Part shown: positions 32,050 to 47,054 of the stretch, piece after piece
Layout of the letters: every line of letters starts with the position of its first letter
Numbering within the stretch: position 1 is the stretch's first letter
Origin: Sulfurimonas sp.
GTDB taxonomy: Bacteria > Campylobacterota > Campylobacteria > Campylobacterales > Sulfurimonadaceae
Direction of reading: 5' to 3'
DNA length: 64,000 bases
NCBI RefSeq assembly: GCF_026196735.1
Contig: NZ_JAPHUF010000021.1
Coordinates: 6,744 to 70,743, forward strand
Translations under genes and position numbers: made by a program
Notes under the pieces: model-generated
Seen by the model: the letters and a program-made list of their open reading frames with translations, nothing else
Told to the model about the DNA's origin: nothing
The model's database searches: none

Positions 32050-32226
32050 TAGCGGACAGTGTATTATAATTTTGCTTATAATTAGTTAATATCAATAAGA
32101 AATATTAATATTTATATCACATCTTGAGCTTTATTATTTCAAAATATCTATGATTATAACAATAGATAATAATAATTATTGATACTACAATAAATATCAC
32201 ATTACTTTTTTTAATGTAGCTAAAAT

Positions 32227-32246
32227 GATATTTCATTTGAAATATC
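32227..32246. promoter_or_regulatory. 20-bp palindrome (parS-variant-like), copy 1
   Basis: GATATTTCA-TT-TGAAATATC; identical at 35951..35970. Confidence 0.6.
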
Positions 32247-32279
32247 TATCTTGTTTGCAAAAACTAAAATGAAAATATT

Positions 32280-32295
32280 TGTTTCACATGAAACA
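32280..32295. other. parS: parS centromere-like site
   Basis: TGTTTCACATGAAACA, 15/16 match to consensus TGTTTCACGTGAAACA; origin-proximal. Confidence 0.88.
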
Positions 32296-32473
32296 TTTAA
32301 TTTCTTTTATAGCAACTAATATGAAAATACTTATGAAACAAGTGTTTTCATTATTATTCCGTTTTAGCTGCATTAAATAAACTTACATGTAAATAGGCAC
32401 AATAAAAACAATAACCTAAATATAAGCCGCAAAGTGTATAATTGCACTAAATTATAAGAGGCTCTCAACTACC

Positions 32474-35164: not shown

Positions 35165-35404
35165 ATGGCTGTAAAGAAAACAAACACTGATAGAATTAAA
35201 AGAATATATGATTTGTGTGAAGAACATTTTGGTGATATTCGTTTTGTAGGGATTAAATATCATAAAAAAATTGGTTGGATTGCAAAAGCACAGTTTGATG
35301 ATGGATTTGAGAACCTAACTGCTGATGGTGAAACAAGCGTAGAAGCTCTTCGTAATTTAAAAAATCGTGTTAAAAAAATCATCAAGAGATATAACGCGGT
35401 TTAA
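35165..35404 (+). CDS. Hypothetical 79-aa basic protein
   Basis: AAGGA SD, normal codon usage, downstream hairpin. Confidence 0.75.
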   Translation: MAVKKTNTDRIKRIYDLCEEHFGDIRFVGIKYHKKIGWIAKAQFDDGFENLTADGETSVEALRNLKNRVKKIIKRYNAV

Positions 35405-35430
35405 TAAGTGATTTAGTTCACAAATAAGTA

Positions 35431-35459
35431 AAACGACCAACACACCAGGGAGGTCGTTT
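35431..35459 (+). terminator. Hairpin after the 79-aa ORF
   Basis: AAACGACC-13nt-GGTCGTTT. Confidence 0.45.
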
Positions 35460-35901
35460 ATAAGTGTAATAATACCCTACTTTTCTTATAAGAAAATAAT
35501 CTTCGTCATCTTCTACAATAAACTTAAATATAATTTTAGCATTAAAATAATTAATATATTTATTCAAAGTGTGCAGTATTCACACATTGTTCTAAGGTGT
35601 GAATACTGTGAGTTGCTGTCATGTACAAATTTTCAAATTTTCTTATTATTTAAGAACAAATTTATATAAAATTATCCTGAAATCAATATACTTTGAGATA
35701 GCTTAAATGCCTATAATTAGGGGCTTATAGGGATTTAGTTATTTGTAGTTATAATTATATATACTTTGTCTCTATATAATACAATAAGTTATTCACACCT
35801 CATATATTTATACATGAAAACATCTAGCGAAGTAACTAATAATTAAAATAAATATTTTATATATAGTTGTAAATATTCACTAAATTGATTAGTAATAACA
35901 A

Positions 35902-35917
35902 TGTTTCATGTGAAACA
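35902..35917. other. parS: parS site
   Basis: TGTTTCATGTGAAACA, 15/16 to consensus; exact reverse complement of 32280..32295. Confidence 0.88.
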
Positions 35918-35950
35918 AATGTTCTCACTACAGTTCAAATAAACAAGATA

Positions 35951-35970
35951 GATATTTCATTTGAAATATC
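35951..35970. promoter_or_regulatory. 20-bp palindrome (parS-variant-like), copy 2
   Basis: GATATTTCATTTGAAATATC, identical to 32227..32246. Confidence 0.6.
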
Positions 35971-36026
35971 GTTCTAATTACATTAAGCAAACTTTTTTAT
36001 TATAATTCGATAAAGTAACATGTCAT

Positions 36027-36938
36027 TTAGATACTCATACTCTCAAAACATATTTTTTCAAAATCTACATCACTTTTAATATGAAACTTTTCGTTGTAAA
36101 GATCAAACTCCAATTCATTTGCATGCAAAAGTAATCTTGAAGCACCGCTAAGATTAATACGATCTTCTATGCTTAACTCTTTATCTAAAAACCTGACTAT
36201 GTCTTTTTCACTTTGTCCATAAATTGGATCTCCGACTATTGGATGTTTCACATGAAACAAATGTACTCTTATTTGATGTTGTCTTCCGGTAAGTGGCGAA
36301 CACTCTACCAATGTAATATCTTTATCTGCAAAATACTTTAAAGGCTTTATATCAGTTTTGGAGCTTTTACCATCTACATGTACTTTTACTACCATTCTAA
36401 CAATTGCACTCTCATCTTCTTTTCTGAGAAGCGGAGCCTCTATAGATATATCATCTTTTAATTCACCGTGAACCATAGCAAGATACTTCTTTTTCATATC
36501 TCTGTGTTCAAACATCATCTTGATATCTCTTTCACTGTTTTTGTTTTTAGAGCACAACACTAAGCCGCTTGTCTCTTGATCTATTCTATGAGCTATATTG
36601 GCATCTCTACCATACTGATATTTCAATTCATCTATTAAAGAGTAGGGTGTGTTTTTATTTTGCGGATGGATTAACACTCCGCTTGGTTTATCAAATACTA
36701 CAAACTGATCGTATTCTACATGCACATTCAATCCTCTAGTGATTGGCTCAAAATATATATACTCAATTTCTCCTTGAATCTTCTGCGAAGACTTATCCAT
36801 AACTTCGCCATTTATAAGCAAGCGACCTCTGGCTATAAAACGCTGAGCTTCTTTTTGTGTATAGTTCAACTCTTTTATAAAAAAAAGGAAAGCTCTCTGC
36901 TTTTTTTCAACATACATCTTCTTAATTACAAATGGCAA
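36027..36938 (-). CDS. RluA-family pseudouridine synthase
   Basis: DKPSG, HRIDQETSG (catalytic Asp), KYLA and TGRQHQIRVH motifs. Confidence 0.92.
   Translation of the reverse strand: MPFVIKKMYVEKKQRAFLFFIKELNYTQKEAQRFIARGRLLINGEVMDKSSQKIQGEIEYIYFEPITRGLNVHVEYDQFVVFDKPSGVLIHPQNKNTPYSLIDELKYQYGRDANIAHRIDQETSGLVLCSKNKNSERDIKMMFEHRDMKKKYLAMVHGELKDDISIEAPLLRKEDESAIVRMVVKVHVDGKSSKTDIKPLKYFADKDITLVECSPLTGRQHQIRVHLFHVKHPIVGDPIYGQSEKDIVRFLDKELSIEDRINLSGASRLLLHANELEFDLYNEKFHIKSDVDFEKICFESMSI
36244..36259. other. parS: parS site inside a coding sequence
   Basis: TGTTTCACATGAAACA, encoding (L)FHVK(H) on the minus strand. Confidence 0.75.
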
Positions 36939-45988: not shown

Positions 45989-46465
45989 TTATTGCTTTAG
46001 TTTTACTCTTTGTGAGTGAGTTATAGCAACTGCTATGGCATCAGTGATATCAAGCGGTTTTATCTCTTTTTTTATATTTAAAAGTCTCTTTACCATAAAT
46101 GAAACTTGTTCTTTTGTAGCTTTACCGTTTCCAGTTAATGCCTGCTTAACTTGAAGTGCCGTATATTCACTAAACTGTCCAAACTGCTGAAGTACTGTAA
46201 GCATAATCGCTCCGCGAAATTGAGCTAATTTTATAGTTGTTTTTGGATTATGCGCATAAAAGATATCTTCTATGGCAACTTCATCAATTTTATGATTTTT
46301 AAATATACTCTCAAAAGCTTCAACCATTTGTGGAATTTGAAATTGTAATTCATCCGCTTTTATTTTGATAAGACCTGCTTCAAGAAGTGATATTTTACCC
46401 TTATCTAAAAATATAAGAGCATAACCCATATTTCTCGTTCCTGGATCTATTCCAAGAATTATCAT
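45989..46465 (-). CDS. ruvC: Holliday junction resolvase
   Basis: [22 protein letters not shown] and DAIAVAITH motifs. Confidence 0.96.
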
Positions 46466-46800
46466 TAAGCGTATTCTTTTGCATCTTCATATTTAGTAAA
46501 TACTGAAATTATTATAAGAAATATAATTCCTAAAAGCGTTGATACTAAATACACATTTACCGATCCATACATTTCTATATTGGCAAAAAGTGCAAAAATA
46601 GCCAGTATAAAAAGCATATTTTTAAATATTGTTTCTATTTCTAACAGTTTCATAACTGAGTAAACAGCTATAAAGACTAAAGCCAATACAGTTATTAATG
46701 ATTCAACATCAGTTGTTGAAGTCAGCATCTGTAACAAACCAAACATCGCATACAGTGTGCTAACAATAAAATCTATACCAAAATAAATACTTTCATGCAT
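46465..46800 (-). CDS. Hypothetical small membrane protein (about 4 TM)
   Basis: 111 aa, hydrophobic; AGGA SD; stop overlaps the ruvC start. Confidence 0.7.
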
Positions 46801-47054
46801 TTAGGAATCCTTTTTTATTTATTAAAATACTAATAGCAAGCTTGATACCATATTTTAGTTTCATAATATTATTCACACTTAATAAAATTAGTTATTCACA
46901 TTAAAATGCTCAAGCAAACAAGGGTTTTTTGTTGCTTATAAGTTCACAGCTATAGGCATTGTCATAATGTGACCAGTGATGACTTAACAATACTTTATGT
47001 TATAAAAAGATATTATTCACATTTAATTAACTTTACGAGGTTTTGTGTGAATAT
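46801..47054. other. oriC1: DnaA-box cluster upstream of dnaA
   Basis: TTATTCACA at 46869, 46892 and 47013; AAGTTCACA at about 46940; reverse TGTGAATAT at 47046..47054. Confidence 0.8.

Follow-up and report, generated by a model that had tools for sequence, protein, structure and literature searches.

Organization of the intergenic region

The window analyzed here is a 64,000-nucleotide stretch of a Sulfurimonas sp. contig. Positions 35405-36026 form a 622-bp region between two convergent genes, with a GC content of 23.8%. On its left side lies orf79 (35165-35404, plus strand), a conserved 79-codon open reading frame 3′ of rlmN that encodes a basic protein of unknown function; the 79-aa product has no sequence match in Pfam, NCBIfam or the PDB. 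On the right side is the gene for an RluA-family pseudouridine synthase (rluD; 36027-36938, minus strand), followed by purB and nrdA. The gene order hisF-PNP-rlmN-(orf79)-[element]-rluD-purB-nrdA is constant. The ruvC-dnaA-dnaN-gyrB cluster is located 11 kb to the right of the region, with dnaA ~11.2 kb away.

A sequence-only reading had treated the region as one element of ~620 bp, in which DnaA boxes cluster next to parS. The region is instead a composite of three separable parts. Unit A (~35420-35490, minus strand) is a small-RNA candidate containing a hairpin with an invariant loop. The box module, or unit B (35566-35800), contains the conserved boxes, a 34-bp AT-rich palindrome and a second hairpin. 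The remaining segment (35800-36026) is a lineage-variable tail with a box-like sequence that is not conserved, the parS site and a second palindrome. Most relatives lack the DNA between 35800 and the end of rluD, and with it the parS module; their rluD stop codon is found +185 to +260 from the box pair, versus +447 here. About 87 bp that include parS (35902-35985) are repeated in inverted orientation at 32211-32297 with 82% identity, the two copies lying around hisF-rlmN. A further palindrome, TTTTCTTATAAGAAAA, is found at 35481-35496, the coordinates claimed for it.

Of 24 genomes of the genus, 22 match positions 35422-35735 in BLAST searches at 68-76% identity (higher in short partial matches); the relatives are mostly metagenome bins. 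In the alignments, near-invariant islands stand within a poorly conserved AT-rich background. These islands are a hairpin at 35432-35458, the box pair at 35576-35606, AAATTT repeats, the palindrome at 35649-35682, a second hairpin at 35704-35737 and AAGTTATTCACA at 35786-35797.

No known RNA family reaches the Rfam gathering score in the window. Compared with Rfam, the region gives nothing with E < 1 (best E 2.5), the corresponding loci of eight relatives give nothing at E up to 1, and no tRNA or tmRNA was found. Protein coding was considered for a 49-codon minus-strand ORF (35418-35567) and for a long plus-strand open frame, neither of which is conserved; it was rejected because the relatives' indels are not multiples of three and their substitutions have no synonymous bias. 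A leader peptide behind the SD-like GGGAGG was discarded, its start codon being missing in half of the relatives, as was a mobile repeat, each conserved block being single-copy in the genome.

A small-RNA candidate at the left edge of the region

Unit A is built around hairpin 1, whose arms (35432-35438 and 35452-35458) enclose a 13-nt loop that never varies and reads UCCCUGGUGUGUU on the minus strand. In most genera, this strand then continues into a U-rich tail. Six of the seven stem pairs show compensatory changes among 53 sequences, and the wobble cells favor the minus strand (ten fit this strand versus 2 for the plus strand; the covariation count gives 11 G-U cells on the minus strand and 2 broken cells). 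With its covarying stem and U-tail, the unit groups with intrinsically terminated small RNAs, and we regard it as a candidate for the terminator-type RNA hairpin of a minus-strand small RNA of ~65 nt. The 5′ end may lie near a conserved TAAG at 35488-35485, although its placement is uncertain; only weak promoter-like sequence is found upstream of this motif. Loop and stem together read CCUCCC, which is anti-SD-like.

The loop motif CAACACWCCAGGRAG is single-copy in 135 of 175 high-quality family genomes and occurs in 15 of 20 genera, with a count of 0 for the reversed control. In at least six genera, orf79 is located directly upstream of the candidate. Unit A is separable from the box module: one genus has a pcm gene between them, which suggests that the small RNA would have its own promoter. 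In genus g35, unit A is ~300 kb from dnaA, and the box module is still found between rlmN and rluD, 18 kb upstream of dnaA. The earlier suggestion that this region might encode an ncRNA is borne out to the extent that a small-RNA candidate is found, but as a separate unit at the left edge.

Assignments of unit A to known RNAs were rejected. The SRP RNA is encoded elsewhere (contig C21, 15257-15354), and unit A is too short for a 6S RNA and has no rod-like fold; a search for 6S RNA itself (RF00013) gave no match anywhere in the assembly, although E values of up to 10 were allowed. One-mismatch matches in other families lack the hairpin arms and lie within coding sequence, and these too were dismissed. 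Unit A is a by-product of the analysis, a family-specific small-RNA candidate that is uncatalogued (absent from Rfam).

The box pair and the third box

All boxes listed by the sequence-only reading, together with its inverted repeat and palindrome, are present where it placed them, but only half of the six boxes prove to be conserved in alignments of relatives. The conserved ones are GTATTCACA (35576-35584, plus strand), TGTGAATAC (35598-35606, minus strand) and the perfect box TTATTCACA (35789-35797, plus strand), which we refer to as box 3. The variants TAGTTCACA at 35414, TTATTCAAA at 35560 and ATATTCACT at 35873, the last in the tail, are not conserved.

The box pair (35570-35606) begins with a weak reverse box, TGTGCAGTA (35570-35578), and continues with GTATTCACA, a 13-bp spacer and TGTGAATAC, the two strong boxes facing each other. 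The pair lies in an inverted repeat with perfect 12-bp arms, CAGTATTCACAC (35574-35585) and GTGTGAATACTG (35597-35608), separated by 11 nt. An exact-pattern scan of one genome per species recovers the inverted pair, spacer included, from 77 records, 76 of them from Sulfurimonas or close kin. This pattern-derived set is biased toward intact pairs; sets collected without reference to the boxes agree with it.

The six core pairs of TTCACA/TGTGAA never change in 43 sequences from at least 10 genera of Sulfurimonadaceae. The outer arm positions are broken in 30-44% of these sequences without compensation, and the stems of hairpins 1 and 2 at the same loci change freely with compensation. Invariant cores beside covarying hairpin stems indicate that the box cores are under protein-type recognition, not RNA pairing. 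The variable positions of the pair are positions 1-3 of the boxes. The spacer (with an invariant TG, and reading CATTGTTCTAA in the genus) is conserved, as is the flanking ATGTGTA. Both the pair arrangement and the 34-bp palindrome are unique in this genome, which argues against an ordinary regulator with a regulon.

Box 3 is embedded in AAGTTATTCACA (35786-35797, plus strand), a perfect DnaA box with an oriC1-type extended flank. It lies ~209 bp from the pair in ~58 of 63 genomes of the genus, and this spacing is constant whether box 3 overlaps the rluD stop codon or is up to 300 bp from it. Loci that were collected independently of the boxes contain box 3 in 10 of 11 cases within the genus and in 13 of 16 cases from other genera of the family. 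Lineage-specific extra full 9-mers have been gained and lost between the fixed sites, at +103 to +191, and some relatives have one or two extra boxes. Such coming and going is as expected if the sites form a box cluster.

Enrichment of boxes

The prediction that boxes are enriched over the AT-rich background was confirmed by shuffling the 622 bp 5000 times with dinucleotide composition preserved. The region has 5 copies of TTCACA versus 0.48 expected, and 0 of the 5000 shuffles reach 5; boxes with at most one mismatch number 4, versus 0.61 expected (P=0.002). Of ATTCACA, which makes up the conserved portion of the footprint-derived S. denitrificans box HHATTCACA (PMC5043019), there are 271 copies in the 2.19-Mb assembly, and at least three within 400 bp are found at two places genome-wide, oriC1 (four) and the module locus (three). 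The module locus is the second densest ATTCACA cluster of the genome. Taken alone, however, the scan statistic permits about one such cluster by chance, and perfect boxes occur genome-wide at chance frequency (31, versus 35 for the reversed control). Enrichment by itself is suggestive, not decisive, and the case rests on conservation. Three other places in the assembly (contig C2, 29750-30700; C4, 343850-344470; C22, 1700-2320) each contain four sites that deviate from TTATTCACA by no more than one mismatch, none of them a perfect box; these may be due to chance.

AT-rich tracts, palindrome and second hairpin

The boxes are flanked by two AT-rich tracts, both more AT-rich than the oriC2 region of this genome. 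The tract to the left of the pair (35514-35563, 8% GC) ranks within the top 0.05% of the genome's 50-bp windows in AT content. Its sequence is poorly conserved and its length varies, with 65 to 800 bp between hairpin 1 and the box pair across genera. The AT-rich core (35627-35682, 10% GC) consists of AAATTTT repeats (35627-35641) and the 34-bp palindrome (35649-35682), which has the form TTTAAGAA-N5-TTTATATAAA-N6-CTGAAA and is conserved family-wide. This core could be either the site of a dimeric protein or a back-to-back promoter. The palindrome half-site resembles the consensus of H. pylori HP1043, TTTAAG-N5-tTTAAg, an activator site that overlaps promoters (PMC8345958), a resemblance that we treat as a lead only. 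The scan of the region for sigma-70 promoter and terminator consensus sequences is at chance level. By eye, we saw no IHF-like WATCAANNNNTTR in the module, and none of the HP1021/Cj1509, CIRCE, NikR, Fur and CRP consensus sequences fits the pair or the palindrome.

Hairpin 2 (35704-35737; consensus AAAGCCCTA-loop-TAGGGCTTT) is a covarying stem-loop found in nearly all relatives, with varied stems. It folds with a mean energy of -10.7 on the plus strand and -9.9 on the minus, and neither strand is preferred (38 versus 33). We read this hairpin as a probable bidirectional intrinsic terminator.

Relationship to oriC1

The boxes of the module match those of the origin. Perfect oriC1 boxes, TTATTCACA, are located at 46869 and 46892. 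The oriC1 box consensus derived from the ruvC-dnaA spacer of 14 family genomes, (A/T)AGTTATTCACAT, equals the extended motif of box 3, and the 11-mer AGTTATTCACA is found in this genome at oriC1 and box 3 only. DnaA of this genome shares 87% identity with the S. denitrificans protein. In S. denitrificans, the footprint-derived box is HHATTCACA, with positions 4-9 conserved and positions 1-3 degenerate (PMC5043019); the variable positions of the module coincide with these degenerate ones.

Strong matches to a profile of the module (R1) are confined to the family. Elsewhere in the order, the top match of this profile in a genome is the ruvC-dnaA spacer, i.e. oriC1, in 10 of 10 inspected genomes from other families. 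In one of these families (f8; L186/L187) the spacer contains AAAGTTATTCACAC, followed by a short spacer and then TGTGAATAAAA, and this near-identical head-to-head pair hints at a common origin of the module and oriC1. The two loci share the extended box, the profile cross-matches and, in other families, the head-to-head pairs. They differ in that the module is not beside dnaA and has its own unique palindrome and terminator, and in that its pair is facing, whereas the oriC1 boxes of this genome are all in one orientation. For S. denitrificans, the terminal oriC1 boxes are described as facing inward (PMC5043019).

Two observations concern the ruvC-dnaA spacer itself. A 111-codon hydrophobic ORF (46465-46800, minus strand) fills most of it. 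The DnaA proteins of relatives align only from residue 24-27, and the true start is probably near 47047, with 46969-47046 then upstream of the gene; such a start would make the perfect box at 47013 part of oriC1.

Position relative to dnaA and parS

Complete genomes were checked from Sulfurimonas and two further genera, and all of them have the module 7.3-22.5 kb upstream of dnaA. Here, a parS-like site with one mismatch is found at 35902-35917. Throughout the genus a parS is found within 30-270 bp of box 3, and one is always inside rluD; an additional intergenic copy is limited to ~20 of 76 genus loci, about one quarter of the species. In genera g23, g30 and g31, parS follows box 3 by 20-100 bp. 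In genera g19, g21, g33 and g34 it stays with rluD, ~2 kb from the box module, and a 575-codon acyltransferase-like gene separates module and rluD there. Adjacency to parS is universal in the genus and separable elsewhere because parS travels with rluD. The neighborhood is conserved, but the ~2-kb distance in four genera means that a physical link is not obligatory. The cluster proposed originally is thus real and strongly conserved, with origin-type DnaA boxes that lie away from oriC and near parS; the proposed link to the ParB centromere holds as genus-wide adjacency but not in the four genera with 2 kb of other genes in between.

At loci L144, L145, L155, L157 and L160, a gene for a protein of ~575 aa is located ~70-160 bp after box 3 and replaces rluD and parS there. 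By eye its product looks OlsF-like, with an acyltransferase H(X)4D motif (NHPLGALDA) and a C-terminal GNAT-like part.

Proposed function and alternative explanations

The sites are present and enriched, they are under sequence-specific purifying selection across the family, they match the boxes of the origin itself, and their position upstream of dnaA is kept. We infer that DnaA is the binder, and we likewise infer the effect of its binding. The locus is a strong candidate for a replication-control locus. More specifically, we rate at about even the proposal that 35566-35800 is a conserved origin-proximal DnaA-binding module, a satellite of oriC1, and that the complex formed there modulates initiation. 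DnaA would occupy the two facing boxes and the third box 210 bp away. The boxes would flank the extremely AT-rich palindromic core, to which a second factor or RNA polymerase would bind, and the assembled complex would most likely modulate initiation. It might do so by holding or remodeling DnaA near the origin, like datA, DARS or the Bacillus box clusters, or, as at the centromere of Caulobacter, by connecting DnaA with the ParB-parS zone next to it; the complex might further control a tiny back-to-back promoter. Several points weigh against a DnaA module. Three boxes are few for titration, perfect boxes occur at chance frequency genome-wide, the conserved position may merely mirror conserved gene order, and the conserved spacer, flank ATGTGTA and palindrome show that other recognition is involved. 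We advance more tentatively, and with the balance somewhat against it, the wider proposal that Sulfurimonadaceae have a dedicated third DnaA-binding locus in the ParB-parS zone, a satellite resembling oriC1 but with an AT-rich palindromic core of its own and 7-22 kb from oriC, that controls DnaA availability or nucleotide state or couples initiation to segregation.

The palindrome and hairpin 2 could also belong to a locus that is mainly a transcription unit, with the palindrome as back-to-back promoter and the boxes as operators for DnaA or another protein. Its products would be a ~55-nt plus-strand RNA ended by hairpin 2, a minus-strand RNA, or both. Such a unit would account for the mirrored TATAAA-like hexamers in the palindrome, the conserved CTGAAA/TTTCAGA 7-8 nt downstream on each side, the conserved terminator hairpin at a fixed distance and the TTTAAG half-site, which is like the promoter-overlapping activator site of H. 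pylori HP1043 (PMC8345958); hairpin 1 also suggests that some minus-strand transcript ends at ~35425. However, conservation does not fall on the key -10 positions (A2 and T6), the sigma-70 scan gives no more than chance, the putative plus-strand RNA is almost unconserved except for its terminator, and the pcm gene intervenes between module and hairpin 1 in one genus. We consider this explanation rather unlikely, and it partly overlaps with the DnaA module, because it would make DnaA a transcription factor. That the TTCACA motifs are read by a protein other than DnaA, for example a dimeric regulator, is in our judgment decidedly unlikely. The similarity to DnaA boxes would then be coincidental or would reflect competition with DnaA. 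The box 3 site and the lineage-specific extras are single non-palindromic 9-mers identical to oriC1 boxes, flanks included, and the head-to-head arrangement is also found inside oriC1 of other families. A non-DnaA operator would have no other copies in the genome, and the half-site spacing, as read from the sequence, is 1 bp off that of CRP/FNR sites. Such a protein would nevertheless explain why the spacer and the flank ATGTGTA are conserved beyond the needs of a 9-mer box, and TGTGTA-N-TATTCACA loosely recalls CRP-type sites. It would also agree with the in vitro result for the predicted S. denitrificans origin 'oriC3', if this is the module locus, as no DnaA binding was reported there (PMC5043019).

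Two further explanations bear on the inverted pair and its AT-rich surroundings. The position of a reverse box some two turns of the helix away from a 50-bp tract with 10% GC, with the 8% GC tract on the other side, both exceeding the oriC2 region in AT content, would suit a third sub-origin or unwinding site, in which DnaA boxes stand beside a DNA-unwinding element that opens at initiation. This arrangement fits the in-silico criterion of Jaworski et al., but their study reports DnaA-dependent unwinding of the S. denitrificans origin in oriC2 and names oriC1 and oriC2 as the DnaA-bound regions (PMC5043019). The AT-rich tracts are, moreover, not conserved in sequence except for the palindrome, and reading the alignment we saw no conserved DnaA-trio-like periodic motif, which makes a sub-origin very improbable. 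We give slightly less credence still to the possibility that the inverted pair is conserved as RNA, as a hairpin in a long minus-strand small-RNA precursor. The pair can fold (8-12 bp), and hairpin 1, further downstream, is a true RNA structure of the minus strand. Against this, the 43 sequences contain no covariation in the pair: its core pairs are fixed and its outer pairs are broken without compensation, unlike those of hairpins 1 and 2. Between the pair and hairpin 1 lie anywhere from 65 to 800 bp, in one genus including a protein gene, the two units are ~300 kb apart in genus g35, and box 3 lies outside any repeat.

To our knowledge, initiation control in Campylobacterota is described only at oriC itself, through DnaA, HobA and the HP1021/Cj1509 regulators, and these bacteria do not have the E. 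coli Hda/SeqA/IHF/Fis toolkit. The sequence-only reading knew of no comparable locus in this phylum, and our literature search likewise found no datA/DARS-like or distal DnaA-box locus described there; the only DnaA boxes outside oriC that it turned up are those near dnaA in C. jejuni (PMC6052347). If the proposed function is correct, Campylobacterota would have in the module their first locus for initiation control of the datA/DARS or Caulobacter type. The module offers a small and precise target, comprising three 6-bp cores and one palindrome that are found family-wide and at a conserved position beside parS. Purified S. denitrificans DnaA and suitable assays are already in the literature. 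A practical corollary is that in-silico origin finders may call the module an extra origin.

Comparison with known systems

One published counterpart may be 'oriC3' of S. denitrificans. In Jaworski et al. 2016, DnaA-dependent unwinding is mapped to oriC2, between dnaA and dnaN, and 'oriC3', a third predicted origin, gives no DnaA binding in a gel shift with linear DNA (PMC5043019). The prediction rested on proximity to the GC-skew minimum and on an unstable AT-rich tract with a reverse box ~2 turns away (PMC5043019). The homologous module of S. denitrificans (2188102-2188454 in genome G046) lies 13.4 kb from dnaA and fits these criteria; the place of oriC3 is given in a figure only. The published gel-shift negative may concern the module locus, which would in that case differ from our proposal in having been reported as unbound by DnaA. 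The same paper states that H. pylori DnaA binding to oriC2 needs supercoiling (PMC5043019). In view of this requirement, a negative on linear DNA is not final.

In E. coli, datA inactivates DnaA and the DARS loci reactivate it, with IHF/Fis sites in datA and DARS2. Like datA, DARS1 and DARS2 (PMC4245941, PMC5010248), the module is a short non-coding cluster of few consensus boxes outside oriC at a conserved distance from the origin, and its conserved palindrome, if a site for another factor, would parallel the IHF/Fis sites. It differs from these loci in having no sequence homology with them and no IHF/Fis-type consensus, in the arrangement of its boxes (a facing pair 22 bp apart, centre to centre, with a third box 210 bp away), and in lying much closer to oriC (7-22 kb). 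Origin-proximal DnaA-box clusters (DBCs) of B. subtilis, reportedly described by Okumura in 2012, are thought to sequester DnaA and restrain initiation. In the S. denitrificans study, Bacillus and Streptomyces clusters are cited as DnaA-sequestering (PMC5043019). The module likewise is an origin-proximal cluster of consensus boxes, comparable with the DBCs and with the origin-distal clusters of Streptomyces. The DBCs, however, have more boxes and are located mostly in gene promoters, whereas the module stands between convergent genes with its own palindrome and terminator.

The nearest functional precedent is the centromere of Caulobacter crescentus, where initiator boxes also lie beside ParB sites near the origin. 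These boxes are located in the parS region, a few kb from the origin, bind DnaA through domain IV, which is used at both places, and drive segregation (Mera et al. 2014; PMC6399470). The module differs in its gap to parS, which is 30-270 bp in the genus and ~2 kb in four other genera. Extra-oriC DnaA-box clusters are characterized by at least three consensus boxes within a few hundred bp, outside the functional origin. Here, GTATTCACA, TGTGAATAC and TTATTCACA all fall within 222 bp, and in most relatives all three are perfect TTATTCACA; the module is 11.2 kb from dnaA, between rlmN/orf79 and the RluA-family gene. Judged by these features, the module is real and conserved, and it would be a known kind of locus, an extra-oriC DnaA-box cluster, in variant form.
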